Source: Yuukianura sp. NJ FZ-2021 (Eukaryota). Taken from it: a stretch of DNA of 64,000 nucleotides. This document shows positions 1 through 56,967 of the stretch, piece after piece (positions within the stretch are counted from its first letter, which is position 1; the number at the start of each line of letters is the position of its first letter). Below the pieces are notes generated by a model. It did no database searches and had not been told where the DNA came from. It saw only the letters and a list, made by a program, of their open reading frames with translations. The position numbers were made by a program, and so were the translations under genes. Location of the stretch: positions 10,478,001-10,542,000 of the forward strand of contig CM102290.1 in the NCBI GenBank assembly GCA_046563655.1. Direction: 5' to 3'.

Positions 1-360
1 GACATGACAGAGAACTTGAAGACCAAAGGAGTTCCCTTTGCCATGACGGAAAACGCGATGACGGACCGGCTTTCCTTATGGGGATATGACGGAAAACGTG
101 ATGACGGACAAAAATACTTTTATAAAGTAGCTAAAGCTACTTAATAACTGTTGTTTCTTTTTCTTCATTCTCCAAATTGTAACTAAAAATAACAATTTGT
201 TTTTTTCTTTTTCTGACAAAATGTTAGAAATCGGTAAAATTCAGTTTTCCAGAAACTAAACTTCTAAAAACGATTTCCAATTTCACTCTGTCCACCTTTC
301 AGACTTACCAATTATGTCACTGAAAATTCTTAAATAGAACAGCAAAGAATCTCAAGTTAA

Positions 361-412
361 TACGGTTTCTGACTGCTGTCGTCATCAGTACCGAGCAACA
401 CGGTAGACCGTA
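361..412 (-). ncRNA. Type III hammerhead ribozyme motif
   Basis: The minus strand reads UACGG-UC / UACCG-uguugcu-CGGUA / CUGAUGA / c-GAC-agca-GUC-a / GAAA-CCGUA. It has an intact CUGAUGA and GAAA core, a GUC cleavage triplet (cut predicted between 406 and 405), a perfect 5-bp stem I and a perfect 5-bp stem III. Stem II has only 3 bp, with a C.A mismatch at its base. Confidence 0.75.
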
Positions 413-422
413 GTGCAATGGT

Positions 423-471
423 CCCTTTGTGCATAACATACCAGATTTAAGTTTCTGGTAGTTGTGCAGGG
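423..471. other. Long imperfect hairpin next to the hammerhead
   Basis: tgcataac-a-taccaga (430-445) pairs with tctggta-gttgtgca (454-468) around an 8-nt loop, with outer ccc/ggg. A TGGTCCCT direct repeat lies at 419-426 and 474-481. Confidence 0.6.
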
Positions 472-480
472 TGTGGTCCC

Positions 481-1700
481 TCTAGCGTATAAAAAAACCG
501 AAAGTCACATTAAAAATACACGAAGACCCATACAACAAAAGATAAGTCAATTAAAAAAAACCGAAAGTCCCGTTAATACACAAGATCCATACAACAATAG
601 ATAAGTCAATGACTACGCTCGAGATTCCGGCCTCATTCACTCGAACTGGCGCACACCGGACTCACCAAGAGTGATTCACACCCCTCTTTGCCCCGTGCCA
701 CCTGAACAGCTACTTGCAAGCCTCATCCGTCTTCGCGCCCAATCTACTGCCGTATGTTCTAGCGTTTAAGAAAAAAACCGAAAGTCACATTAAAAATACA
801 CGAAGACCCATACAACAAAAGATAAGTCAATTAAAAAAAAACTAAAGTCCCGTTAATACACAAGATCCATACAACAATAGATAAGTCAATGACTACGCTC
901 GAGATTCCGGCCTCATTCACTCGAACTGGCGCACACCGGACTCACCAAGAGAGATTCACACCCCTCTTTGCCCCGTGCCACCTGAACAGCTACTTGCAAG
1001 CCTCATCCGTCTTCGCGCCCAATCTACTGCCGTATGTTCTAGCGTTTAAGAAAAAAACCGAAAGTCCCGTTAAATATACACAAAGATCAATTCAACAAAA
1101 GATAAGTCAATTAAAAAAACCGAAAGTCACATTAAAAATACACGAAGACCCATACAACAAAAGATAAGTCAATTAAAAAAAAACCGAAAGTCCCGTTAAA
1201 TATACACAAGATCCATCCGTCCTCGCGCCCAATCTACTGCCGTATGTTCTAGCGTTTAGGATAAAAAAACCGAAAGTCCCGTTAAATATACACGAAGATC
1301 AATTCAACGAAAGATAAGTCAATTAAAAAAAACCGAAAGTCCCGTTAATACACAAGATCCATACAACAATAGATAAGTCAATGACTACGCTCGAGATTCC
1401 GGCCTCATTCACTCGAACTGGCGCACACCGGACTCACCAAGAGAGATTCACACCCCTCTTTGCCCCGTGCCACCTGAACAGCTACTTGCAAGCCTCATCC
1501 GTCTTCGCGCCCAATCTACTGCCGTATGTTCTAGCGTTTAAGAAAAAAACCGAAAGTCCCGTTAAATATACACAAAGATCAATTCAACAAAAGATAAGTC
1601 AATTAAAAAAAAAACCGAAAGTCCCGTTAATACACAAGATCCATACAACAATAGATAAGTCACTGGTAAACCATTGACTACGCTCGAGATTCCGACCCCA
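481..1700. repeat. Tandem repeat block A: ~165-bp core plus ~55-bp A-rich subrepeats
   Basis: The core ATGACTACGCTCGAGATTCCGG...GTTCTAGCG occurs at ~609, 889 and 1381, with partial copies at ~1213 and ~1675. Cores are separated by variable numbers of AAAAAAACCGAAAGTC...GATAAGTCAA units. Confidence 0.95.
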
Positions 1701-1703
1701 AAC

Positions 1704-4700
1704 TCTAATAATAACACTTCTGCTGCGCATTCAAGCAAGAGACACAGGGACTAAGTTTTTTACCACATCCCCGAACCAATGCGGATTGAGACTTTGAAAC
1801 GATCTGTGCATGGACACATTCGCCAAGAAGTGATTCCGTAGGTTTCGGTTGTGGGATTTAGTATGTGTTCCTAAGTGATGGTACAGAGAAGGTTTAGTCA
1901 AAAATTTAAAGTTCATTTTACAATTTTTTGAACCAAAATTACGAAACAAACTCCAGATTTTTTTTATATACACGAAGATCCATACGACAGAGGACTAGTC
2001 AATGACTACGCTCGAGATTCCGGCCCCAGTTCACTCGGACTGGCACACTCCGGACTTACCGAGAGAGATTCACACCCCTCCCTGCCCTGTGTCACCTGAA
2101 CAGCTACTCGCAAGCCTCGATCCGTCTTCGCGCCCAATCTACTGCAATGCCGTATGTTCCAGTGTATATGAAAAAAACCGAAAGTCACGTTAAATGTCAA
2201 GTCTCGTTAACTCTAATAATAACACTTCTGCTGCGATATGAATAAAACCGAAAGTCACGTTAAATGTCAAGTCAAGTCTCGTTAACTCTAATAATAACAC
2301 TTCTGCTGCGCATTCAAGCAAGAGACACAGGGACTAAGTTTTTGTACCACATCCCCGAACCAATGCGGATTGAGACTTTGAAACGATCTGTGCATGGACA
2401 CATTCGCCAAGAAGTGATTCCGTAGGTTTCGGTTGTGGGATTTAGTATGTGTTCCTAAGTGATGGTACAGAGAAGGTTTAGTCAAAAATTTAAAGTTCAT
2501 TTTACAATTTTTTGAACCAAAATTACGAAACAAACTCCAGATTTTTTATATACACGAAGATCCACACGACAGAGGACTAGTCAATGACTACGCTCGAGAT
2601 TCCGGCCCCAGTTCACTCGGACTGGCACACTCCGGACTTACCGAGAGAGATTCACACCCCTCCCTGCCCTGTGTCACCTGAACAGCTACTCGCAAGCCTC
2701 GATCCGTCTTCGCGCCCAATCTACTGCAATGCCGTATGTTCCAGTGTATATGAAAAAAACCGAAAGTCACGTTAAATGTCAAGTCTCGTTAACTCTAATA
2801 ATAACACTTCTGCTGCGATATGAATAAAACCGAAAGTCACGTTAAATGTCAAGTCAAGTCTCGTTAACTCTAATAATAACACTTCTGCTGCGCATTCAAG
2901 CAAGAGACACAGGGACTAAGTTTTTGTACCACATCCCCGAACCAATGCGGATTGAGACTTTGAAACGATCTGTGCATGGACACATTCGCCAAGAAGTGAT
3001 TCCGTAGGTTTCGGTTGTGGGATTTAGTATGTGTTCCTAAGTGATGGTACAGAGAAGGTTTAGTCAAAAATTTAAAGTTCATTTTACAATTTTTTGAACC
3101 AAAATTACGAAACAAACTCCAGATTTTTTTATATACACGAAGATCCACACGACAGAGGACTAGTCAATGACTACGCTCGAGATTCCGGCCCCAGTTCACT
3201 CGGACTGGCACACTCCGGACTTACCGAGAGAGATTCACACCCCTCCCTGCCCTGTGTCACCTGAACAGCTACTCGCAAGCCTCGATCCGTCTTCGCGCCC
3301 AATCTACTGCAATGCCGTATGTTCCAGTGTATATGAAAAAAACCGAAAGTTCACGTTAAATGTCAAATCAAGTCTCGTTAACTCTAATAATAACACTTCT
3401 GCTGCGATATGAAAAAAACCGAAAGTCAATGTTAAATGTCAAGTCAAGTCTCGTTAACTCTAATAATAACACTTCTGCTGTGCATTCAAGCAAGAGACAC
3501 AGGGACTAAGTTTTTGTACCACATCCCCGAACCAATGCGGATTGAGACTTTGAAACGATCTGTGCCTGGACACATTCGCCAAGAAGTGATTCCGTAGGTT
3601 TCGGTTGTGGGATTTAGTATGTGTTCCTAAGTGATGGTACAGAGAAGGTTTAGTCAAAAATTTAAAGTTCATTTTACAATTTTTTGAACCAAAATTACGA
3701 AACAGACTCCAGATTTTTTTTATATACACGAAGATCCACACGACAGAGGACTAGTCAATGACTACGCTCGAGATTCCGGCCCCAGTTCACTCGGACTGGC
3801 ACACTCCGGACTTACCGAGAGAGATTCACACCCCTCCCTGCCCTGTGTCACCTGAACAGCTACTCGCAAGCCTCGATCCGTCTTCGCGCCCAATCTACTG
3901 CAATGCCGTATGTTCCAGTGTATATGAAAAAAACCGAAAGTTCACGTTAAATGTCAAATCAAGTCTCGTTAACTCTAATAATAACACTTCTGCTGCGATA
4001 TGAAAAAAACCGAAAGTCAATGTTAAATGTCAAGTCAAGTCTCGTTAACTCTAATAATAACACTTCTGCTGTGCATTCAAGCAAGAGACACAGGGACTAA
4101 GTTTTTGTACCACATCCCCGAACCAATGCGGATTGAGACTTTGAAACGATCTGTGCCTGGACACATTCGCCAAGAAGTGATTCCGTAGGTTTCGGTTGTG
4201 GGATTTAGTATGTGTTCCTAAGTGATGGTACAGAGAAGGTTTAGTCAAAAATTTAAAGTTCATTTTACAATTTTTTGAACCAAAATTACGAAACAGACTC
4301 CAGATTTTTTTTATATACACGAAGATCCACACGACAGAGGACTAGTCAATGACTACGCTCGAGATTCCGGCCCCAGTTCACTCGGACTGGCACACTCCGG
4401 ACTTACCGAGAGAGATTCACACCCCTCCCTGCCCTGTGTCACCTGAACAGCTACTTGCAAGCCTCGATCCGTCTTCGCGCCCAATCTACTGCAATGCCGT
4501 ATGTTCCAGTGTATATGAAAAAAACCGAAAGTCACGTTAAATGTCAAGTAAAGTCTCGTTAACTCTAATAATAACACTTCTGCTGCGCATTCAAGCAAGA
4601 GACACAGGGACTAAGTTTTTTACCACATCCCCGAACCAATGCGGATTGAGACTTTGAAACGATCTGTGCATGGACACATTCGCCAAGAAGTGATTCCGTA

Positions 4701-4824
4701 GGTTTCGGTTGTGGGATTTAGTATGTGTTCCTAAGTGATGGTACAGAGAAGGTTTAGTCAAAAATTTAAACTTCATTTTCCTATTTTTTGAACCAAAATT
4801 ACCAAACAAACTCCAGATTTTTTC
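1704..4824 (+). repeat. Tandem repeat block B: ~5.5 units of ~582-591 bp, probably Helitron-derived
   Basis: Marker ATGACTACGC at 2002, 2584, 3167, 3758 and 4349 gives periods of 582, 583, 591 and 591. Each unit has a TCTAATAATAAC start and a CTAGT junction and contains a diverged version of the block A core. The repeat is directly visible; the Helitron origin is inferred from the TC...CTAG-type ends. Confidence 0.9.
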
Positions 4825-5228
4825 AGTATTATGCATAATGAATCCGTATAATTTCGTTAAAATTTGTTGTTTTTTTTTTTGGGAAAACTTTGGAAATGTG
4901 TTGAAGTAATTTTTGTCCAGGTTTCTAATCCTAACCTAATTTTTTGATTAAGTGAGATTCGAGTTGCCAAAAACTAAATTCGGAATTAATCCCAAATTTT
5001 GAACATCTGAGAAAAGAAATGCCTGGTTGACCTGTTACACAATTGCAAACTGACGTGACTATTCGCTATTTCAAATTCCTTATTTTTTCAAGTTTTTTTT
5101 ACCATGATTTCTATAACCCTCCCTATGGATGATAAAACCGGATAAAAATATTATCCACACTCGTAACATAATGCCTATCATATAACACTCGTAAAAACCT
5201 GCGAATCGGCACAGTCTGAAATATCTGG
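4564..5228 (+). mobile_element. Possible non-autonomous Helitron-like element (last array unit extended)
   Basis: Begins TCTAATAATAAC like the array units, leaves the array at ~4824 and ends in a short TGC-gaatcg-GCA hairpin followed by CTGG-T (a CTRR-type end). There is no Rep/helicase coding sequence. Confidence 0.35.
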
Positions 5229-5341
5229 TTTTCGGAGGAATAGACATACCCGATTTGTTGCTCCATGTGCTTTATCATGTTTACTTTAAAATTGTTATTA
5301 ATTCATATTTGTGCATCGGAAACACAAATCACACCTTACAG

Positions 5342-6025
5342 TTAATTCGTGTTTGGAAAAAGATGAACGAGAACGAGAGAGGGAAGATGACATGGAGAAA
5401 GAAGCCATCACTAAAAATCCAAATCTACCAAGTCTACAAACAGCTGATATTGAAAAAATGGTAATTTCCAAAGTTTGCAACTTTTAGAAAAGATTATTTT
5501 TTGAAAATTTCGAATTTGGTCTGAACAGGCTGACAAACTCATCGAAGCTCCTTGATGTATTCAAAGATGATTGATGAACACCCTCTCCTGCAAGCCTACG
5601 GTGCTGAGACACTGAATGAGTTCATGACCAAAGTGCTAAGTTTAAGTACTATCAAGGCAATAGAGTTGGAACAAAGCATTATGCTACTTCCGGTTTCCTA
5701 CGTTCATCAAATGATTCCCGCACTGGAGCAAGTACTTGTCCACTTTCCCGTTTACGCTGAACTTGCAATCAAATGTCTCTCGGCTGTTGTCAACTTCCAC
5801 TTGGATTCTCTGCGCCGAGTCGATAAAGAACTGTTGAACAAAGTAGCGGATTTGGCAGAGTCCAGAGGCCTTGAACTGAGCGACAGACTTGGAGTGAACA
5901 TCGCCTCAAATTTTTGCAGGAGTCGGTAACAATGGCAGAAAACTTGGCGTGAAATTTTGAATCTACCGTGGGAGATGTGAAACGTAAGAGGAAACAGAGC
6001 GAAAAACTTATCAAAAGAGCCTTTG
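5342..6025 (+). pseudogene. WDR3: WDR3/Utp12 (Dip2) C-terminal gene fragment, disrupted
   Basis: Translated pieces LIRVWKK..DEREREREDD..EKM | ADKLIEA..HPLLQAYG..ELEQSIMLLPVSYV..GVNIA..LKFLQE..KRKRKQSEKLI match the Utp12 C-terminal domain. A GT-AG intron is retained (5461-5528). There are frameshifts at ~5360, ~5550 and ~5905 and an in-frame TGA at ~5950, and the WD40 N-terminus is absent. Confidence 0.8.
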
Positions 6026-6029
6026 GTGT

Positions 6030-6710
6030 CCTAGGTCATCCTTCCTTGTCCATTGAAGATTGGTCAAGCAAGCAGAGATTGACGTCACAAAAAGAACGCA
6101 AACACATTGCGATTGCGATAGGAAAAGAGAAGCTGAAATCAACAGTTGCCAAAAACTTGCCGACGTCTGGTGGGTTTTCATAGTTTTCGCAAATATCCAC
6201 ATTCCAGTCCTGGCACTTGAGCTCTGTAGGTTGTCCACAGTTAGTACTTAAGGTGTGCTAGGTCATCCTTCCTTGTCCATTGAAGATTGGTCAAGCAGAG
6301 ATTGACTTCGCAAAAAGAAGTCAAACATTGCGATTGTGATAGGAAAAGAGGAAGCTGAAATGAAGTTGCCAAAAACTTGCCTCCGTGTGGTGGTTTTCGC
6401 AAATATCCACATTCCAGTCCTGGCACTTGAGCCCTGTAGTATGTCCACGGTGAGTACTGTTACTGTTAGGGCATCCCAGGTCGTCCTTCCTTGTCCATTG
6501 AAGATTGGTCAAGCAGAGATTGACTTCGCAAAAGTTGAAGTCAAACATTGCGATAGGAAAGGATAAGCTAAACAAAAAAAATTGGCAACTTACCGACGTC
6601 GGGTCTTGAAGTCTTCGGAAATATCCAGGTAACAGTGAGGGCCGTTGAACTTTACAGTTTGTCCACCGTGAGTATGTCCATGTCATCCGTCGTCCTTGTC
6701 CATTGACACT
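6030..6710 (-). repeat. Degenerate ~210-230 bp tandem exon-intron modules (about 3.3 copies)
   Basis: CCTT(CCTT)GTCCATTGA recurs at ~6040, 6265, 6485 and 6693. On the minus strand the units have GTAAGT/GCAAGT donors, pyrimidine tracts and a Cys-containing frame (NLCLTNLQWTRKDDLGCP...GLKCQDWNVDICEN) broken by stops and frameshifts. Confidence 0.7.
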
Positions 6711-6874
6711 GGTCGCTCACAAATTGTTCCGCACAAACAAAATTTGCACGGTGTTGCAAAAAAAAGAGAAACTTTTGCGGTTTTTTTTGCGAGGAACGTA
6801 AAGTACGTCTACCCAGGCCGGGTTTCTAAGAATCACTGCGGGATTTCAAAATGGCGACCGACGACATCACAACG

Positions 6875-6899
6875 AGAACCTTCTAGAAGGTTCTAGAAA
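6875..6899. promoter_or_regulatory. Heat-shock element, 5 perfect inverted nGAAn units
   Basis: aGAAc-cTTCt-aGAAg-gTTCt-aGAAa, with a YY1-like AAAATGGCG at 6848-6856 nearby. Confidence 0.75.
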
Positions 6900-6984
6900 G
6901 TGAACTTCTTCTGCTTCTAAGCAGTGACTGCTATATGGAAAACAATGGAGACTGTTACTGGCTATGATCGGTTTTCGATATAGT

Positions 6985-7004
6985 GGAACCTTCCAGAAAG
7001 TTCG
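6985..7004. promoter_or_regulatory. Heat-shock element, 4 perfect inverted nGAAn units
   Basis: gGAAc-cTTCc-aGAAa-gTTCg. Confidence 0.7.
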
Positions 7005-7541
7005 GAGGGGGAGGGGGGGGGAAGGGGTGACCTGCCTCTGGACAGTATAGCAATGCTCATCCATTGTTGTCCAAGTAGTATTAGTACTTTTGTATGAAGT
7101 AAACAGTTATGTATAGTTCCATTCATTTGTTCTAAAAAATAGCGGGAAAAAAACGAAATACTACATTCATACCCAATCTACACACCGCAAAAATTTTGAA
7201 ATTTGATAAAGCAGCATACCATTGGCAAAATTTCGGTTGACATTTCGACTTAACAGTACACTCTCTGAAGTGAGTCCTTTGATAAATTTGACACCAAGAC
7301 ATGACAAATTATCGTGTTCAGTTTGGCCTTGCTTGATATCCGAACCTCTGACCTATTTCCTAATAAAGTTTTGACTGTTTCAGATTCTTCTGCTCCGGCG
7401 GCCAAGACGAATTGAATGTTCAGTTCCATTTTCTGGGGTATGAAGATTGGTATCACAAACCTCAAAGGAACAAGATTTCAGTGTCAACTTTACAGTTTAC
7501 AATACTCGAGTCTGAGAACTTAGACACAAGACATCGATACC

Positions 7542-7968
7542 ATGGAAAACAAAGAGATCGTAGCCATTCTCGGGAGGTAGTAACTGTTGCTAGAAGGTGT
7601 TGATAGCAACGAAGCATTCCTAACGGCAGAGGAAACCGAAGATGGCGAATTAGTTGAGATTTCCGAAGAGATCGATCCATTATCATGGCAAGTCGAATCC
7701 GGGGGAATACGGGATGCTGGAAGTACTGCTAGCAGTTAGAAGAAGGTTTTCATCTTCCACCAGACGTTGGACGTGAAGATGTCATAGGCGATACTGCACC
7801 AACTGATGAACTGGGCTTGCATTAACCTGGTGCCTTTGACGAGGTGGAGGATGAAGACAAGGAAAATGGAGGCCAGGGTTCACACCAATCTGATTTTGCT
7901 GAAGAAGTCAAAACTCAGACAGTTATGGCGATAACAAGACGAAGACTTTCCCATGAAGGAATCTACTG
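7542..7968 (+). pseudogene. Decayed acidic coding fragment, unidentified
   Basis: E/D-rich frame (LEGVDSNEAFLTAEETEDGELVEISEEIDP...DEVEDEDKENGG...EEVKTQTVMAITRRRLSHEGIY) interrupted by stops and a frameshift, ending at a GTATGT donor. Confidence 0.4.
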
Positions 7969-8439
7969 GTATGTCCAACTCCAATTTAATCGTTAAAGTT
8001 CCGTTCGTTAAATGTACTTGAATACTGTTCAATTGATTTCAGGGGAAAAGACCGGAATCTGAACATTGCAGAGCTTCTCTGCGCCTCCTGTCATCGATGG
8101 TATACCACGAGTCCTGTATTGGCTACCAACTTGGCAAATTGGTCCTTTTATGATGAATTTCATCGTCATTTGAAAAATCTGCTCTGCAACTGGACTGGAG
8201 TCTTTCAAACGAAGCCCGGTACGGGAGTAAATCAACCTTTCCAATAAATTTGTTTATTCATTGATACATCAGGTGATTTTTGTTTCTTCATTAGCTTTCG
8301 TCCAGATCTGTGTCACTGCCATTGCAAATCTGCAACAAGCTAGTCTAAAGGACGGTTCAAATCGACAACGTTTTTCAAAGGAGGGTGAGATAATTCCATT
8401 TATCGACATGCACCCGGAAGGCATGACACCACCAACCCG

Positions 8440-9536
8440 ATGCAGCTCCTTATCCTAGCAAACAGCTGTAAATATCCAACAGAAAAAGCAAAGTGAGTTT
8501 CCAGATCCAATTTTTACCTTGTTAAAAAATTAGGCTAGGTTTTTTAAAATTTTAAATCGTTTTCAGAGTTGTCCGCAGCATCTTGAGTGTTGACGGAAAC
8601 AGAGAGTGCTGTGACTGTGGAACACCAAACCCGGAATGGGCCAGCATCAACCTCGGTATCACCTTGTGTATAGGTAAATTGAAATAAAACTTAAGACTAA
8701 CTTAAAATAACTAACTTAAATCATAAAGCTAAGTAAACTTATCCACCACATCGAATGAACATTAATTCAGCTCCTTGTATTTCCAGAATGCTCCGGGATC
8801 CATCGATCGCTTGGCGTTCATTACAGCAAAGTGAAGTCACTAAAACTAGATACTTGGGAAGGCGGACTTCTAAAAGTCATGGGAGATTTAGGAAACTCCG
8901 TCGTCAACCGAATTTATCTGGCCAAAGTAGAAGTCGTAAACACCTTAGGTATAATCCCAGCTACTCCGAATTGCTCCAGGTATGAATTTGAATTAATTAA
9001 GTAATTAATTAAATTCATCAGTTTTTAGCAATTAGTAAGTTAAGTTACATTTCTTCTCATTAAGGGAGATACGCGAGACATGGATAAGGGCCAAATACGT
9101 CGACAAAGCTTTTGTAGCATCTCCGGGTCTGAATGGAACCAATTCCGCAGGAAAGAAGTTGATTCGGAAGTGGAGTGTTCGGAAACCGTTTCGGCGAGAG
9201 AGAAAAACTGGCAGTGGTCAACGACCAGCTCAAAATCCAGAACAAGAAAGTGCGTTACAATCTCAGCTTCCGTCGGCATCAGTACCACCGTCTGCTACAA
9301 ATGAAGACTCAGAAACTGAGTCGTTCAAATCACTTTCCTCCAATTCTCGAGACGAAGGAGAAAACTCAAGTGTCCGAAGTCGGAGTGACTCGGAAGTGCT
9401 CGTTTTCGGAGCCGAAGCATTACCATTATCTCCAACAGAAATTCTCGATACACAGGGAGAAGATTCGACGGATGAACCAGAAGCAAAGGAGACTGGTCAG
9501 TACGCGATGACGGACGAAAACGCTTTTATAAAGTAG
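8440..9536 (+). CDS. ArfGAP-domain fragment of an ACAP/centaurin-beta gene (truncated copy, possibly a pseudogene)
   Basis: Exons ~8440-8492, 8567-8673, 8787-8979 and 9065-9536 with GT-AG introns. They encode [51 protein letters not shown]...[11 protein letters not shown], i.e. the C4 zinc finger and catalytic Arg. The BAR and PH domains upstream and the ankyrin repeats downstream are missing. Confidence 0.8.
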
Positions 9537-10111
9537 CTAAATCTACTTAAAAATTAAAATGAAGGAATTAATTCAAACAATCACACTGTATGTGAATTAC
9601 TTTTAAATTACTTAGCAACTTGGAATTTATTTTGGCAGTTGTTAGTTTATACCAATCCGTGTATGCCTGTAGAACAGTTAAGTTTATCGTTTGTAAATTG
9701 TAATAACGTGAAAACTTGTGTAATAATCTAGAAAAAAGATTCTAAACCTTATCACATCCGAATTTCGGAAAATCGTTGGAGAATTATAAAATTTTCGGTT
9801 TTGTTTTAAAATTGTGCAAATTGCACATGTGGCCTATTCTACAAACGGTCTAAAACGTTTTTCCAAATTTTTACAAGAGTTATTTTACAAGAGTTCCTAC
9901 ACTACGCCAAACCTTACACAAAGTTTTCGTTTTTTTTTGGCAATTTTGGATGCTAAATCGAACTAACTTTAGTACCTAAAACTATTTGAACAATGAGCGT
10001 TCATTCCTAATCTGAAAATTTGTCCCATGATTTTTGGCTGGAATTGTCCTCAGCTTGGGTAAATGCGAAGTATACTAAACATGAACTTCGTGACTTCAAT
10101 TGGGCAACACT

Positions 10112-35151: not shown

Positions 35152-35176
35152 GTTCCAGGACATTCCTGAAGGTTCT
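35152..35176. promoter_or_regulatory. Possible heat-shock element
   Basis: gTTCc-aGGAc-aTTCc-tGAAg-gTTCt (one mismatched unit), followed by TATAA at ~35184. Confidence 0.35.
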
Positions 35177-44493: not shown

Positions 44494-47114
44494 TCAGGCT
44501 CCAAAATAGGATCCATTGAGATAAGTTGGAAATGGGGGCGGTGGAGGCTGCTGACGTGGCGGTGGACCGAGACTTGATCCGGGTGAAGTCATCTCTGGCC
44601 CTTTACCATCTGAAAATACGTTTTCAGAAGAAAAATTAATTAAAAATGTGTCTAACTTAAGCAGACTTTAGAGTATAACCCGACGTTCATGAACGGTCAA
44701 CTATGGACACTTTAGGTTTATGTTATGCCCACGAAGTAGAATCTAAATGTCGTCATGAAGAGTACTCGTCGTCCATAAGTGACCGTCCACGAGAGCCCTA
44801 CATTCATCTAGACTTGTATTGCACTGGTTTCCCGCCAAATTCAAAACGTTGTGAAACGTTTTCACGACGTTTTGATGCTATTTGAATCTAACCATTCTCA
44901 GAGTTGCTCTCTTCTGCTCTTTCGTAGTGCGGCGACTCTTCGAGATCTTCAATTCTTGGACTGTGATCTTGTTTGATACTGGAAGAGCCTGGATCCGAGT
45001 CAATCTTGTCACTGTCTCCTTCTTGCCCATGTGAGTTCCCGTTGCCATTGCCAGTTGAGGATACGTCAAGCGGTTCTTCTGGAGAGTAGCCCGAAACGTC
45101 TTCCATCTTGAGATTTAGCCCTTGGTAAGGAGACATAGGGAAACTGCCTTTGCGATATGGACGGTTCGTCGTTATTCCCAACTTCTTGACCTTGTCATAG
45201 AGCGTTCGAGACGGAACGCCATACTTCCGAGCAGCTTGTAAGGCACTCATCCCGGCACGAACGGCTTCAATTGCTGCCATGATGTCATTCCGAGTGTACT
45301 GTTTGTACCGTTTCCACTCTGGTTTCTGATTGGATCCGCCATAACCCGCCATCCCTGTGGAACAAGTAAGGAAAAAAGGCAGAAAATGCATTAAGTTGTT
45401 TATAGTTTTTGTTCCAAATTCGATAAGATTAGTAAATAGAAACTACACATTTCAAATCCAGCTGCTTATTAACTATGTAAGTGTGTGTGTGTTTCCTTGT
45501 TGTTCCAGCCAAGTTTGGCCCATTTCATCGAAAGTTCCCGCAATGGATGAAAATGTGTGTGATTTAACGTAATCGTGTGCCATTTAACCTCATTCAATGT
45601 CCAAAACCACTTACCCTGCTTATTATCTTCCGAGTCCAGGCTAAAGGAATGATTGTCTTCGTGCATCTGAAAAATAGATAAACAAGACTCTAGGTTATGC
45701 TTGACTCTGCACATTTATTAATCTGCTAAGCACTTTAAACCTTGACATTACGGGTGAATGGACCAAGTTCTACTTTTTAAGTTGGTGACATAGACATACA
45801 AACACACAGAAAGATGACAAAAATAACAAGCTTGGACTTACCTTATCACTCTCGACACTGCGGATGGAGTCATCGAAATACGTGTCTGGAGATTCACGGA
45901 GTCCCTGCAAATCATGTCCAGAAGTTATTATTACCTGCAGCTTTTAAACTTAATTCATTTTAAATCAATTCAATCCCCGGATGAACAAAAATGAATGACG
46001 CACAATTGCATTGTTTTTCTCAAATTTAAAAAATCTGCTCAAAAGGACGTTAATCCGACAGTCCAGCAGTTTCGTTTCTTGTAACAAAATTGCTGAATTG
46101 GTCTCTAATGTAATGTACATGTAATATAATGCAATAATTCTACTTTGACCTTGAACTTTAGATTGCACTGGACATGAAGGTTACCTTGTCACTGTTGTCG
46201 TTGGGTCCATTACTGTTGGGTGTCCCACTACCAGAGAGTGAATAATTGATTGACTTGACCTGTGGCTCACAGTTTGGATGGGAAGCCGTGTGACCCAAGA
46301 CTGTCCTCAGAATCGGCGTATCCTTATTGAGGTTCGTATTTGAGCTGCTTCCGCTGCTATAGTACAATTTCTTACGTTTGAAACATGATGTAGACTCTAC
46401 TGAATTTTCATAGGTTGTGGATATGGAGGAAACTCCGCCGTGGATTGGTGACGATGACGCTGATGGCAACTTCGTTGATGACCAAGCATGGAAGGATGGG
46501 ATGGAGTTCCTCTCTGGCGGTAGTACGGCACTGTAAGGTGACTCTGTCGGAATGAACTTATTATTCGGTGGCAAATGATTATTTTTTGGATAGGACGGAC
46601 CGACTCCGACGTTGTTGTCGTAGTCAAGTTGCGGCAGAGGCGGTGGGGGAGGTGGAGCTGGAGGTCGAACTTGCTGCTGCTGAGTTGACTGAGCGAAATT
46701 TGTTGTCGAAGAGTGCGGCGACGAATTGCCGACTGCTGCCGAAGACGTTCTCTGATGATCTTCTACGAGCCCTTTGACCTTGAGCGTTTCTGCTGCCTTG
46801 AGCAAGCCGGACAACTGATCTTGACCAACATTGACCTCCCCTTTGTACATGTACTCCAGGATGGCCTTGACCTCTGAGAACAGAATGTCCTTGAGGATGA
46901 CAATGGGATGTCGACAGTCGTTTTCCAGGAACAATTGCTGGAAGTATGAGGAACAGGCTGCCAACACCATTTTATGACACTTGATTGAGTGGCCGTCACA
47001 GGCTAACGTCACGTCCGTAAACGCTTCGGTATGAAACAAATGTTCAAAGACCAGGAGTAAGTTGGAGCGGTGATTGTTCCAACGAAGACAGTATTGCTGA
47101 TTTGCTTGTCCCAT
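44494..47114 (-). CDS. lov: BTB/POZ plus pipsqueak HTH transcription factor (Tkr/jim lovell-like)
   Basis: Exon 47114-46185 carries a tramtrack-type BTB (QQYCLRWNNH...DVTLACDG...HKMVLAACS...LKVKGL). It is followed by 45904(or 45934)-45842, 45666-45615, 45354-44893 (WKRYKQYTRNDIMAAIEAVRAGMSALQAARKYGVPSRTLYDKVKKLGI, psq motif) and 44609-44494; an alternative stop lies at 44888. Confidence 0.88.
44687..44791. mobile_element. Short inverted-repeat element in the last lov intron
   Basis: GAACGGTCAACTATGGAC ... GTCCATAAGTGACCGTCC imperfect inverted repeat; same end motif as 22010-22296. Confidence 0.5.
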
Positions 47115-50100
47115 TCTTGATTTGTAGGAGCCGTTCGAGAGCACTGAAGAACTGAAAACAGAAGAAATTTATTTTACTGAAGAGACTGGAAGAACGTTGA
47201 CGCAGGGTGGGCAACTTTGCCGCTGCGGAAAACTTGCACTGGTGGAAGGTTAGGTTAACCTAAAATTGGCAAACTGACTTGGAGCGCGTTGGGGATGAAA
47301 CTGACGAAACTAAACGGTGTACCCTTTACTACCCTCCAACTTTACGGTGTCAAGCGTATTACGACTGCTAATAACGATTCACCGTCACTGTTCAAACCGT
47401 GTCAACCGCCATTCCTCCTGACCACCATGACTTTGCTGGGTGTGGATAAGCCAAAAAAATTTTGCGTGTAGAATGGAGACAGCAGGAGTAAAGTTAGGGA
47501 GGTGTTTTCTGGACCTGGCAGAAGGAAACCCAGTATAAATTGGTCCGAGCTCTCCGTGGATACCCAAAAAAGAGTTACTTGGAGTGGAGCTCTGTGCCGA
47601 GCCTTGTAAATTGGACTTTTTCTACTTCTTCTGCGGGGGGATGATGGGGATGGTTTTGGGGGGTACGGGAGCTCTTAGGTCCAGGGTGGGAACGTTACGG
47701 AAGATGGCTGCAATTTTGAGGGGCTGACTAAGAGAGGGAAGTGCTTAGGCTTGAGTAAGATCCAGAATGAAAGCTAAGGCTGACTTTGGCCTCGGCTTCC
47801 CTAAGCCAAGCTATTATAGGCCTCTTTAGATTACGTAATGCACAAAATGCACTTTCCGAGGTGATGGTTGGGGGGGGGGGTGTTCTTAAGGGGAGGTGTT
47901 CAAACTAGCTTTCCTAAATATACCCCCAAAATCCTATCGTGTCCAGAGTGTACCAGAATATCCAAAGACCATGTCATTCTTACCCAGAGACCCAGAATGT
48001 CATGGAATACTTGGTAGTAAGTTGGCCTGTCTGCGCCAAAAGCCTCCAAGCTTTGGCCAAAAACCTTTCGTTTTGTACAGACAACAATAGAATCCTCCCC
48101 ATCCCCACCCGCCCCCAGGGGCAACAATAGGCTATTCCTCCCCACTCCATGACCATGCACATCCACTTGATTAATCCCTACTCTTGCCAAATTTCTTCCA
48201 TCCCTGTGGCCCTGTAGGGGCCCTTAAGGCCCAACCTGCTCCAACTAACTACCCTTCCTAAAATATTTCAGCCCCTTTAAAAGTAAACACAGGGTAAAGG
48301 GCCCCATGAATCCAGAACAATGGGCCAAGGGACATGCCAAAACATGACAGTGACAGCAACGAAAACTGCAAAGTTCAACAAAACAAAAGGGATTTAGGAA
48401 TAAGCAAAGTCCAAAGCTCCATTTTCCAAGAATTCTTTGACTAATATCGACGATACTAACTTACCAACGTTTATGATGGATGTACATTCCGGTATCGAGA
48501 TATCAGGAACGAACAATACACGGCAAGCGTAACTGCAAAAATTGCGATTCGCGAAACGTAAAACTGTAGTCGCCGTATCCACCTTAGGTTTGACGTGTGA
48601 CGGTAGACATATTAGTACAGTTGACATTACATTTTACTAATTAATTAAGCAGTACATAGAAGATTATAATTACATTTACCTACCTATACTAATTACGTTT
48701 TGCTTACGTTTCAGGAACGTTTGAATCTGCACAGCGACATGAAACTGAAGTCTGGTATTCGGTACGTTTTACGTAACTGGTACACGTAAATGAAACGATA
48801 TGGCGGTAGACCTACAACGGTATTCCGTGTCACCAACAATCGAACAACAGCGACTAAGTCAAAAAAACGGTGCCACCGTTAGGAACAATGTCAGTATGCG
48901 GAGTGATGAGAGGTTCTGCAAACCCTTTTATGAAAATTGCAATGTCCAGCGTCGATATGAATGGTGGAGTTATGCAGTCACGTGATTCAATGAGAGGAAT
49001 TGTTTGATTTTGATTGTTCTCGAATCGTTGATTGGTGGATTTTGGCCATCTAGTGCCAATGCATAGTTTCATGCAAATTTTTAGCCACCTTCTGGTCACC
49101 CATTCGCAATGTCATTGTCATTGTTAAAAGTTTTGTATTAATTCAATTCGAATTAATTTCGATTTTTCAATTATATAAAAACCACAATACTAAGAAAATG
49201 TTAGGTTTCTAACATTAATATAAACGTGCAAATTCGTTTTAGCAACTTCGCCAAGATTGGCAATGGAATCTCAACCTTGCACAAATTTCTCGTCATTAGC
49301 CAAAAATTTGCATAAGGACTGTACTGTTTCGCCTTTGTTCAAGTTAAGGTGGCTTTGATTAGTAGCATGGTGTGATCATTCGCAAATTGCAAATCTTAAA
49401 TGGTGTGAATTTGCAAAAAAAAAGAGGAAAAAAAACTTTCGAATATTACTAAGAAGTTTGGTTTTAACCTGAGATTAAAAATAAGATTAGAAAAATTCCA
49501 TTTGGAATTCTAAATTTGGCAATAAGTTGTAAGTTTTGCATGGAAACAGTGCACTAAAAAGTAGCATGACTCTGAAAAGAATGGGATAAGCTGCTTTTTG
49601 TAAAAAAAAAAAAATCAAAATGCGAAGGGGAGATGAAATCTGGGCTTGGGCGTTTTTTAAAAAAAAAGAAGCTTTTTAAAACAAAAAAATTCCTGCTGTA
49701 ACTTGTTCCTTGGAATTTGTTAAAAGAAGTGCTTTGTGCAAAAAAACAATAAATTGCTGAATCCCACGACCCATCAACCCCCCTATATTTCTATTTTCAA
49801 AAATACGTTGGAATTTGTTTTTTCATGATTTGATTTTTAAAACAAGAGTTTGAAATTTTGAAACAAGATGGCGAGTACAGTAGCTAGAGTTTTGGAATAA
49901 GAGTTCGGTAGCTCCATGAGATGGCGTAAGCATCCTACGCATTTTACGCACATGACGCACTTTTTTTTTCTTGAAAAAGCCATATTAAGACACATCAGAA
50001 TTTTTACAATTCAAAATTAATATTTTTTGTAACAAAAATATCTGACAACTTCGGTGTATCTTTATTTGTTCATTGCAAAAAGCAATGCTGAAGAGTATGA

Positions 50101-54200: not shown

Positions 54201-56967
54201 CAATATCTTTCTGCGCCTTTCGCGCTCCTTGCATCTCAACTTCCAAATTCTCCCTCCTCCACTTCATTTAATGTCATTTTCTAAGCCTTGTAGAAGGTGA
54301 GTAGATTAAAACTGCCTAACGTAAGGCAAAGATACTAGACACAAACATTTTGCTTATTCGACGAAATTTTCGCGCGAAAAAGCAACACAGTCCCAAATTT
54401 AAATTCACGAATCTTTTTTCAAGTTTGAAAAATAACGGAACTTGTAATGAAATGGGACTTTCGTAGAATTGTAGAATTTATTGCAAAAATGTCAACATTG
54501 CAAAAAGCCACGGCGGGCAAAATTTGCAACTTTTTCGCAATCTTATCTCAAGTGCAATAAAGATCCAACAGCCTCTTCCATATCAAGGTGGCTTCTGTTT
54601 TAAATTTCCAATAATTTGGCCCGTAATTTTTTGTAATTGTGATTTAAATTTTTGAAAATTTTAATTTTAATTGCTCTTTCACTGCGCAGCTCGGCTCAGT
54701 GGTCTAGTGGTATGATTTACGCTTTGGGTATTCAAATTTGTGTAAGACACGGGTTCGATTCCCGTCTGAGCCCGAAAATTTCTTTTTCGCTCAAATTAAT
54801 GCCCTACGCTTTCATTTGTTTGTCTGATTTAATTATTTTTAATAAAAGGTGCACTCATCAATACTTTTGAAACTCTAACTTTCACAATGTTTAATTGGCA
54901 GGGTAATTAAAGTAAGTAACGTAATGTTGATTAGGCTAATGAGTTTGTGTTATGTTGTAATTGATGTTTGTTTGGGTAGAGCAGCTTTACATAATGTTCA
55001 GTATGTATCGAGGTTACATATTAGGTTAAGTATGGGAATTCTATTTCTGAAAATACATTCAACGCTGCGAATCAATCATAATTTGTTCCACGTTGGATTT
55101 AGGTGTGACAGGGAGAATAGGGAGGGAGAAAGCGCGGGAAAACTTTCTCTCTTCAAAATCAGAGAATTTGAGAGGAACGCGGCGGGAAGTAACAACGAGG
55201 AAAGAAAAGTTTTGGATGTCAATTAAATTAAAGGGGAGAGAAGGGCCCTTGAGCCCTTAAACCCTCCAGCAGAAGTTGACCTGTCAGTCACAAAAGCCAC
55301 TTTTGAGGTCAATTCAATTTGACTTTTGGACCTAAGCAAGGTCAAGGTCCATGGTAGCTAAACCGCAATTTTTGCGGCGTAAGCAACGCAACAGCATCGT
55401 GTAACGTTTCTTTTTCACGGGCTACGTGCTTCTGTTCCTATCGCTTTCTCCGATGACACTTTTTGGCATGGTGAGAAAAAGACAGGGGTAGCAGGTTTAC
55501 ACGATTTCACGAGTTGCAAAGCCCAACGCGATCTGAATAAGCAATTTCATTAAGAGTGGCTCGCAAAAGTCTCGCAAGCGCGACAAAATTTCAAATTTTG
55601 AAAAACTCTGATTAAACATTGCAAGCTGAAGTAAATATGCCGTGTTTACTGTCTAAATAATTTGATTTGCATTTGTTATAAGTTAACCTATCGTTTTCTG
55701 TAGTTAGCTTAACTGTATACTATGCTTAATCATAATCACCTAAAAGTTAAACAGTCAACTCACTTCTGTACTTTATTAGATGAAAAATGCTGGCCAACAT
55801 TCGTAACTCCGAATTCGGTGCTTTCGGTCCGTCTTCATTCTAAAATAAAACAACAATGACTTAGCCGTTGATGTTTTTTTTTGTAAGACGTTCTTATGTA
55901 TGTGCAAAAATAGTTAATGACTTGAACTTTTTTTTTGCAATTTGACAAGTTCCAGACAACTTGTCAACCATGTTTAAGTTTCTGTTCTAAAATTTCGTTC
56001 TAATTGATTAAATGGACCAGAACAGGCTAAGATGGATGGAGTGATAATGGGTGTCATAAAGACAATGGACACTTCCCCTTGCCTCATCTCCTCATAAAAC
56101 CGGAACAGAAACTTTTTACGAGTTTGACAAATAACTGTGGCGTTTGCATTGGGCGACTCAAACTGCGTTCGTAACTCACTCGGATCATGATAGACACGGC
56201 GACGACCCCGTTGGGTTTGAGCAGCGCTTCGGACAAGTTGGCGTACAGCTCCACGTTGAAACCATAAAGCTGCAGCTGTAAAAACAATAAACTGAATTTA
56301 ATTTACAACTCTATGCGCATTAAAAGTTTTCCAGCAGAAAAGTTACAACTGGAATTGAATCATCATGGGGCAGGATGAGTCAACTGGAATTTCAATTTTC
56401 AAACTTTCCCTCTTTACGAAAAAAGTGAACACCCATGGTCACTGGACCGAACGTCAATTCAATTCCTTTCCAAAATATGAACTTTCATCAACTTTCTTTT
56501 TCCAACTTCACAAATAAATTTTCCAAACTTTTCGAGAAGAGGATTTAGCGCTACTTTCGACATAAACTGGATGAAAAACAGGCGAAAATCATATATTTTT
56601 TATAATTTCAAAGAAAAAAAAACCTCGTGCGTTATAAAACGAATTTTGTTCGTGTGTCGTTGGAAAAGTAGACTTTGCATGAATTTTCAAATAAATGAAT
56701 TTGAAAACTGACGCTTCGTTCAATTTTAATCGCCAAGCGCGGAATTTGATATCGTCGGAATTTTTTAAAAGATGGACTGACCTCGGCTGGAAACGCGATT
56801 CCGTCGATCAAATGTTCTGAGCCTAACAAATCTTCTGGACCAAAGTGAATGTAGAGCTCTTCAAATTGGTAACGATAGGTCAAGGGACCACCGGAAATGT
56901 TGACCCGTACTCCCCTCTCAGCTGAAAACACAACTGTTTGTCCAGTATTCCGCAGAGTTCCACTAAT
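51279..56967 (-). CDS. Carbonic anhydrase-related protein (CA10/CA11-like, acatalytic), 3' exons only
   Basis: Exons 56967-56782, 56275-56180, 55839-55764, 53356-53202 (YMTYEGSTTHPGCWETVTW), 53135-53007 (NVRPAQ...RTVRTNI) and 51350-51279 (KKCPTM...). The zinc ligands are replaced (ELYIHFG, ELQLYG). The N-terminal exons were not found and probably lie beyond the window end. Confidence 0.9.
54693..54773 (+). tRNA. tRNA-Pro(TGG) with a 10-nt intron (54729-54738)
   Basis: Acceptor stem GGCTCAG/CTGAGCC, A-box TGGTCTAGTGG, anticodon stem TACGC/GTGTA, anticodon TGG at 54725-54727, T-arm ACGGG-TTCGATT-CCCGT and a T-run at ~54783. It is antisense within a CARP intron. Confidence 0.85.

Follow-up and report, generated by a model that had tools for sequence, protein, structure and literature searches.

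A pair of heat-shock elements (HSEs) near the left end of a 64,000-nucleotide stretch of DNA from Yuukianura sp. NJ FZ-2021 (assembly GCA_046563655.1, contig CM102290.1, positions 10,478,001 to 10,542,000; hereafter the window, with coordinates counted from its first letter) is very probably a genuine site of the type bound by heat-shock factor (HSF). The promoter predicted beside it probably fires leftwards, i.e. on the minus strand, in the direction of a 4.35-kb tandem array and of a hammerhead-like motif that lies beyond the array. With middling confidence, we read the interval as a composite of independent features, namely an HSF-type promoter, an unrelated young array, and a ribozyme motif that would have arisen by chance.

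HSE1 (6876–6898) consists of five perfect alternating GAA/TTC units in 5-bp phase and contains an 18-bp perfect palindrome, GAACCTTCTAGAAGGTTC. HSE2 (6986–7003) consists of four perfect units and is identical to the palindrome of HSE1 at 16 of 18 bases; neither element is assigned to a strand. The four-unit HSE pattern occurs twice in the 64-kb window, compared with 0.02 occurrences expected from 100 shuffles, and 200 random 64-kb sequences drawn from a first-order Markov model yielded 331 three-unit, 12 four-unit, and no five-unit runs. The sole further run in the window is one of three units at 35163. Thus, the two strong HSEs noted in a first-pass annotation of this DNA are present, perfect, and far above chance. 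The segment that carries them, with its flanks, has no second copy within the window. All 27 key bases of the two elements are intact amid visibly decayed pseudogenes, suggesting present-day constraint or a recent origin more than a dead remnant. A G-rich run, GGAGGGGGAGGGGGGGGAAGGGG (7005–7030, plus strand), directly adjoins HSE2.

Because HSEs have no polarity, a core promoter was sought on both sides of the pair. Both strands (2 × 64 kb) were searched for the initiator (Inr) core CAKT combined with the downstream promoter element (DPE) RGWYVT at +28, using the consensus sequences given in the excerpted text of PMC1538597. Only four such combinations were found, one of which lies 39 bp from HSE1 and faces away from it. 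This proposed core promoter (6805–6839, minus strand) comprises the Inr core GCAGTG, with A+1 at 6837, and the DPE AGACGT at +28 to +33 (6810–6805), which includes the “most trusted” GACG. Relative to the proposed start at 6837, HSE1 is centered at approximately −50 and HSE2 at approximately −157. In a post hoc check, the chance that one of the four pairs falls within 2 × 150 suitable positions was ∼4 × 300/128,000 = 0.009. Within 600 bp to the plus side, neither an Inr/DPE pair nor TATAWAW was found. At the motif level, these results support the minus-strand polarity proposed earlier for the HSE promoter. The first-pass annotation had also listed GCCATTTT on the minus strand, and we found it at 6848–6855, between −18 and −11 relative to the predicted start; we take this motif to be YY1/Pho-like, a putative factor assignment.

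Heat-shock promoters are marked by at least three contiguous inverted nGAAn units near a core promoter; here, runs of five and four perfect units lie beside a putative core promoter, the Inr/DPE pair being 39 bp away. Together, the HSE pair and the Inr/DPE at 6837 (minus strand) would form an HSF-dependent promoter that fires leftwards and most likely works. The pair itself is read directly from the sequence, from which we infer its function and direction.

That the HSEs instead act rightwards, on an ASH2-like fragment and ArfGAP exons at 7.4–9.5 kb, or serve as an orientation-free enhancer, appears improbable. Such a role would agree with the palindromic nature of the HSEs, which gives them no polarity, and with the ArfGAP exons at 8567–9536 (plus strand), which are open; the first of these exons has no upstream in-frame start, suggesting that further 5′ exons exist. 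However, the plus side offers no Inr/DPE pair or TATA motif over the 600 bp searched, and the intervening ASH2-like sequence is frame-broken.

For the leftward promoter that we prefer, the proposed start is followed by a putative non-coding first exon of 241 nt (6597–6837, minus strand), which would end at a consensus donor, CG/GTAAGT, with the GT at 6596–6595. This leader contains very short upstream open reading frames (ORFs) and one unspliced ORF of 121 amino acids. Translations of the open stretches in 6014–6825 (minus strand), including the 121-residue ORF, gave zero Pfam family matches. An exhaustive HMMER search with this ORF returned three matches among 1.84 billion representatives, namely an 880-residue low-complexity repeat protein and two multi-domain repeat proteins of 1425 and 1759 residues, which aligned in 5–11 weak stretches at 32–34% identity. 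We rejected these candidate relatives as repeat-driven artifacts, because they are internally repetitive and unrelated-looking, match in weak stretches, and reach an E value of 0.03 in pairwise BLASTP for the best of them. The leader region also holds an inverted repeat, GCAAAAAAAA ... TTTTTTTTGC, at 6763–6791, approximately +47 to +75 when counted from the proposed minus-strand start.

The 3′ part of the leader falls in the first of three tandem units of ∼218–227 bp (6021–6710, minus strand), which are 72–77% identical. Exon–intron repeats had been proposed for this region; the three tandem units are indeed there, but the exon label is backed neither by coding signal nor by how conservation is distributed. 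The best-kept block of the 218-bp units is TGCTTGACCAATCTTCAATGGACAAGGAAGGA.GACCT, i.e. the end of the supposed “intron” and not the “exon”, and the donor reads GTAAGT in the promoter-proximal copy only and GCAAGT in the other two, indicating that the units are a local triplication rather than demonstrable exons.

Adjacent to the triplicate is a pseudogene fragment of the WDR3 C terminus (Utp12; 5335–6020, plus strand), which matches PF04003 with an E value of 2e-7, exactly at the cut-off. The fragment retains an intron-like gap and has an in-frame stop; a word-index search against longer proteins gave 0 matches from 557 candidates. Any minus-strand RNA would run antisense to this fragment. 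A unique AT-rich spacer (4831–5334, no strand assigned), which has no other copy in the window, connects the WDR3 fragment to the array. The first sequences to be transcribed from the predicted promoter would accordingly be the non-coding 241-nt leader with its donor and the 218-bp triplicate, followed by the antisense of the WDR3 fragment.

The tandem array spans 478–4830 (4.35 kb) and is built from two classes of units. The short-unit part (478–1675, no strand assigned) consists of 280-bp units with 59–65-bp subrepeats and carries GGTGAGTCCGG on its minus strand; the 280-bp class itself covers 491–1670. The long-unit part (1676–4830, no strand assigned) consists of five and a half units of 582–591 bp, each of which carries GGTAAGTCCGG and TATATAAAAA on the minus strand and is composed of a core in common with the 280-bp class, two 75-bp subrepeats, and a 250-bp extra segment. 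Identity is 98–100% within a class and 91–92% between the cores of the two classes. The neighboring long units 3124–3714 and 3715–4305 are 100% identical, and the copies at the edges are more diverged. This is the pattern of a young or actively homogenized array.

Each full core of the array contains the motif GGTRAGTCCGG on the minus strand (8 of 8 cores, against 0.02 occurrences expected), as GTGAGT in the three cores of the 280-bp class and as GTAAGT in the five cores of the 582–591-bp class. The earlier description of a 4.3-kb array with a splice-donor motif in each full core, all on the minus strand, therefore holds for 478–4830. Further elements accompany the repeats. TATATAAAAA, with its TATAAA matches, recurs in each long unit on the minus strand (at 1968, 2550, 3133, 3724, and 4315) and could be a unit-internal TATA-like element. 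In the array cores, the donor motif is immediately preceded in minus-strand RNA by a 9-bp hairpin (3227–3250 and 948–970); by eye, it shows one double change from A-U to G-C between the classes, too few to speak of covariation. A separate hairpin, already noted in the first-pass annotation, is present outside the array at 439–460 (no strand assigned); its loop measures 8 nt and its stem 7 bp, lengthening to 10 pairs upon folding.

Several searches characterized the array further. The hammerhead core CTGANGA is absent from both strands of 478–4830; below 7.8 kb it matches only at 382–388 (minus strand), and the next match is at 7803 (plus strand). Because the units have no hammerhead core on either strand, we rejected a metazoan retrozyme or hammerhead satellite as an explanation for the array. 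A comparison of the array with Rfam yielded nothing except matches to microRNA models with E values of 8–9.7, and the RNA structure of the array core showed nothing unusual on either strand (z-scores from +1.25 to −1.16). The array has no protein-family match, and its ORF at 1327–1674 (plus strand) gave 0 matches from 20 candidates in a word-index protein search. A 24-nt array motif had 0 matches in metagenome contigs. The idea that array and hairpin form a Helitron was examined by eye and revealed no convincing terminal signature. In the composite reading, the array would be a young, homogenized local repeat that is free of ribozyme cores and has no demonstrated link to the promoter.

The hammerhead-like motif is of type III and occupies a single site at 361–412 on the minus strand, 70 nt beyond the array. 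Its stem III (UACGGU/ACCGUA, 6 bp) is open and pairs 412–407 with 366–361, and C17 of the GUC is at 406. Stem I (UACCG/CGGUA, 5 bp) pairs 405–401 with 393–389 and closes a 7-nt loop. The core CUGAUGA is located at 388–382 and the GAA at 369–367. Stem II has 3 bp (380–378 with 373–371). At 10.1–11.1, where helix II should have a Watson–Crick pair, C381 stands opposite A370, and this C·A mismatch is backed by only the three further pairs. The excerpted text of PMC3088659 describes 10.1–11.1 as the most conserved pair after 15.1–16.1, with U·U as the best tolerated mismatch.

Searches with Rfam models returned no hammerhead match in the window at the gathering score and none in 1–8000 at E ≤ 10, type III included. 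When the search was confined to 330–480 (151 nt), the best score was 16.6 bits for Hammerhead_II, compared with a threshold of 37. The hammerheads HH9 and HH10 of amniotes are intronic. Similar to type III or intronic hammerheads (RF00008), the motif has an open helix III, and its ribozyme body would remain with the 3′ fragment upon cleavage; unlike RF00008, it has C·A at 10.1–11.1 and finds no type III match in Rfam at E ≤ 10.

Folding of the 53-nt core gives −11.6 kcal/mol for the hammerhead and −14.9 kcal/mol for the minimum free energy (MFE) structure, so that a competing helix is ahead by 3.3 kcal/mol. The pair probability of stem II is 0.003. CUGAU instead pairs with GUCAG (p ∼0.73), and the catalytic core would thus be sequestered in the MFE structure. 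In contexts of 131 and 221 nt, the hammerhead stems I and III are replaced too, and the MFE structure of a 76-nt segment is a fold other than the hammerhead (z = −1.09).

The descriptor used here demanded ≥5 bp in stems I and III and ≥3 bp in stem II, with a closing mismatch and G-U pairs permitted. Of 600 random 64-kb sequences, 3 contained a motif of equal quality by this descriptor, and 31 did so when stems of ≥4 bp were accepted. By simple arithmetic, the rate of 3 in 600 makes such a motif rare per window but amounts to dozens per arthropod genome, and to many more when many windows are scanned. The stem and core pattern was found 0 times in metagenome contigs and 0 times in viral contigs. 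Most likely, the motif at 361–412 is a chance look-alike, although it might cleave weakly in vitro. Of the terminal hammerhead claimed in the first-pass annotation, the core, the GUC, and stems I and III are confirmed at 361–412 (minus strand), whereas the mismatch in stem II, the failure in Rfam, and the predicted misfolding speak against a ribozyme. The processing of an RNA end by this ribozyme, as also proposed there, is not supported, in view of the Rfam result, the 10.1–11.1 mismatch, the competing hairpin, and a motif frequency that is at chance level genome-wide. In the composite reading, this motif would match a descriptor by chance, 70 nt away from the array, and would define no RNA 3′ end. 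The site thereby provides a worked example of a complete-core hammerhead descriptor match that can still be due to chance.

Several observations weigh against such a composite. All eight full array cores keep a consensus 5′ splice site, across classes that differ by 8–9%, and the direction of the promoter, the donor that closes the leader, and the donors of the array align as a single minus-strand unit would predict. From ∼7990 to 1, the minus strand contains neither AATAAA nor ATTAAA, and this 7990-nt run free of both signals is the longest of the window on either strand, the next being 4835 nt. The invariant core of the hammerhead-like motif is complete, with CUGAUGA, GAA, A15.1–U16.1 (A366–U407), and GUC as the optimal site with C406; in the window, the descriptor matches 361–412 (minus strand) only. 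Moreover, a minimal hammerhead that lacks tertiary contacts can still cleave in vitro.

The run without poly(A) signals is a suggestive post hoc observation and is not decisive. Since the array is redundant, the test was confined to 3355 non-redundant bases, for which 3.5 signals are expected and zero were obtained in 5% of 400 simulations. The variant hexamers AGTAAA, GATAAA, and AATACA are found on the minus strand before the array, at 5285, 5276, and 5561, respectively. ARAGORN detected no tRNA-like 3′-end element in 1–8000. A scan for bacterial-type terminators in 1–1000 found nothing either, a type of scan that is not relevant to RNA polymerase II.

Given a real HSF site that fires leftwards, it is conceivable, though somewhat doubtful, that the RNA reaches the array. 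A stress RNA similar to hsr-omega but without a ribozyme is an unlikely yet live alternative to the composite. In this case, the HSE promoter would produce a nuclear non-coding RNA, in which a leader of ∼2 kb (6837–4831) is followed by the array; the U1-type 5′ splice sites and the missing poly(A) signals would keep the RNA long and nuclear, and it would end in another way, possibly past the left edge of the window. In hsr-omega, as described in the excerpted text of PMC1636489, two small exons and an intron make up a unique 5′ part, beyond which short tandem repeats extend over more than 5 kb; the repeat unit of Drosophila melanogaster is given as 280 bp in the excerpts of PMC1636489 and PMC9865238. 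Similar to hsr-omega (93D), the present locus would combine a heat-shock promoter and a unique 5′ region of ∼2 kb, devoid of a conserved long ORF, with kilobases of short tandem repeats of the same polarity downstream, including a 280-bp class. The layout thus parallels that of hsr-omega, for which the organization and not the sequence is described as conserved in the excerpted text of PMC1636489 and PMC9865238.

In addition to this layout, such an RNA is favored by HSEs at approximately −50 and −157 of an Inr/DPE start, a non-coding leader, the donor motif in each of the eight array cores, and the 7990 nt of minus strand that lack a poly(A) signal. However, the last of these points reaches only p ∼0.05 on non-redundant sequence, as a post hoc result, and the variant hexamers precede the array. 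The leader, made of pseudogene antisense and a local triplication, resembles debris rather than a conserved gene and differs in this respect from that of hsr-omega. The array cores are unremarkable in RNA structure. A 9-nt motif is conserved in the hsr-omega repeats of Drosophila species; with at most one mismatch, it occurs 0 times in 478–4830 and 7 times elsewhere in the window, where 5.9 occurrences are expected.

Further differences concern the RNA itself and the dimensions of the array. The transcripts of hsr-omega are polyadenylated, hsr-omega-n among them, as stated in the excerpted text of PMC1636489, whereas the present locus has no canonical poly(A) signal. The repeat RNA of hsr-omega is induced by heat and confined to the nucleus, where it occurs in speckles. 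Unlike in hsr-omega, the array measures 4.35 kb only and has two unit classes. The parts of the locus, a putative promoter, a 2-kb unique part, and a 4.35-kb array, would be compatible with the hsr-omega layout, but of the splice sites only one donor and no convincing acceptor were identified.

We regard it as rather unlikely that the interval is an architectural stress RNA locus of the hsr-omega type in a non-Drosophila arthropod, with an HSF-driven Inr/DPE promoter and a long, unpolyadenylated nuclear RNA. The homogenized 4.35-kb repeat part of such an RNA would offer one consensus U1-binding 5′ splice site in every unit, its strand being kept devoid of poly(A) signals over 8 kb, and the 3′ end of the RNA would possibly be set by the weak hammerhead or by another non-canonical cut. 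In the excerpts of PMC1636489 and PMC9865238, hsr-omega is described as conserved in Drosophila species, and only a Chironomus heat-shock puff is mentioned as having similar non-coding transcripts; our literature search found no sequence-defined hsr-omega-like example in a non-Drosophila arthropod. Should the promoter drive a repeat-bearing RNA, hsr-omega would have a sequence-defined counterpart in an organism other than Drosophila. More modest but solid is the finding of unusually perfect paired HSEs and DPE-type core promoter motifs in non-coding, rearranged DNA.

The first-pass annotation had gone further and proposed a heat-induced RNA of ∼6.4 kb (6837–406 with the start predicted here) that acquires its 3′ end by hammerhead self-cleavage after C406 rather than by polyadenylation. 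This model inherits all points that favor an hsr-omega-like RNA. It can also draw on the type III motif, which shares the strand of the proposed RNA, lies 70 nt from the end of the array, combines a complete core with a GUC, and is rare per window, being matched in quality by only 3 of 600 random sequences. We nevertheless consider the model extremely improbable, and the same holds for the narrower claim that the hammerhead makes the end of the RNA. The motif is sub-threshold in all three Rfam searches, has C·A at 10.1–11.1 with only three further stem II pairs, and is disfavored by 3.3 kcal/mol with respect to the CUGAU/GUCAG helix, with stems I and III lost in longer contexts. In addition, searches of metagenome and viral contigs found no relatives. 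According to the excerpted text of PMC7229834, animal hammerheads are mostly of type I and located inside each repeat unit, as in newt satellite 2, Dolichopoda pDo500, Schistosoma, and retrozymes, where every monomer carries one; here, a single motif of type III lies outside the array. The animal-repeat hammerheads described in the same excerpt have loop–loop contacts and are backed by cleavage assays, whereas the present motif stays below the Rfam threshold.

The DNA around the promoter and the array is a patchwork of gene fragments. To the right of the HSEs lies a pseudogene fragment of the ASH2 N terminus (8040–8455, plus strand). Its winged-helix part (8231–8455, plus strand) matches residues 71–119 of PDB entry 3rsn_A with an E value of 1.5e-4, and its PHD-like part (8040–8230) is spread over three reading frames and, taken alone, has no PDB match. 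At the left edge of the window, 1–147 (plus strand) is the 3′ part of the last exon of an ArfGAP paralog and includes the stop at ∼133–135. This tail is 88% identical over 52 nt to 9502–9553, contains an internal duplication of ∼44 bp, and is followed ∼230 bp downstream by the hammerhead-like motif on the opposite strand. The two ArfGAP tails, at 1–147 and 9400–9553 (plus strand), may mark a tandem duplication of ∼9.4 kb, the other copy of which would lie left of the window. Counting the WDR3, ASH2, and ArfGAP pieces, at least three broken gene copies surround the promoter and the array. The caveat of the first-pass annotation that the parts could be adjacent by chance in a rearranged region fits this patchwork.

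These surroundings also bear on a further explanation, to which we assign a minor but appreciable likelihood, namely that the HSE promoter does not belong to a dedicated RNA gene. It could be the remnant or live promoter of a coding gene that has the array in a long first intron and further exons outside the window. Alternatively, a mobile element or a segmental copy could have brought the promoter, which would now give rise to incidental heat-induced transcripts only. The strong donor at the end of the leader would suit the first variant, and the copied WDR3, ASH2, and ArfGAP fragments on the flanks indicate that DNA has been shuffled here. There are precedents as well, since HSE-bearing Helitrons and pseudogenes are direct targets of HSF-1 in Caenorhabditis elegans (excerpt of PMC6765114) and HSF1 drives transcripts of short interspersed elements (SINEs), telomeres, and satellites (excerpt of PMC9032817). 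However, the HSE segment with its flanks is single in the window, transposon protein domains were not found in the ORFs scanned, and the 27 key HSE bases are intact next to decayed pseudogenes.

Known HSF1-driven repeat transcripts offer a partial parallel to the interval. Similar to the human satellite III, telomeric repeat-containing (TERRA), and SINE RNAs (PMC9032817, in its excerpted text) and to the Helitron and pseudogene RNAs of C. elegans (PMC6765114, likewise in excerpt), the putative HSF site lies beside or within repetitive or pseudogenic DNA. In those systems, such an arrangement yields stress-induced non-coding RNA, and the HSEs belong to, or lie between, numerous dispersed or pericentric copies, whereas here a single promoter-like HSE pair lies 2 kb from one local array.

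Elsewhere in the window, a diacylglycerol-lipase-like gene was observed on the minus strand at 10.1–16.6 kb, and small introns are present in the window. Exons encoding BTB and Psq-type helix-turn-helix domains at 44888–47168 (minus strand) form a bric-a-brac/ribbon-like gene, whose BTB exon (46158–47165, minus strand) is closest to arthropod BTB clusters in a protein atlas. A tRNA gene at 54693–54773 (plus strand, 50.8 bits) has a 13-nt intron-like insert in the region of the anticodon loop.

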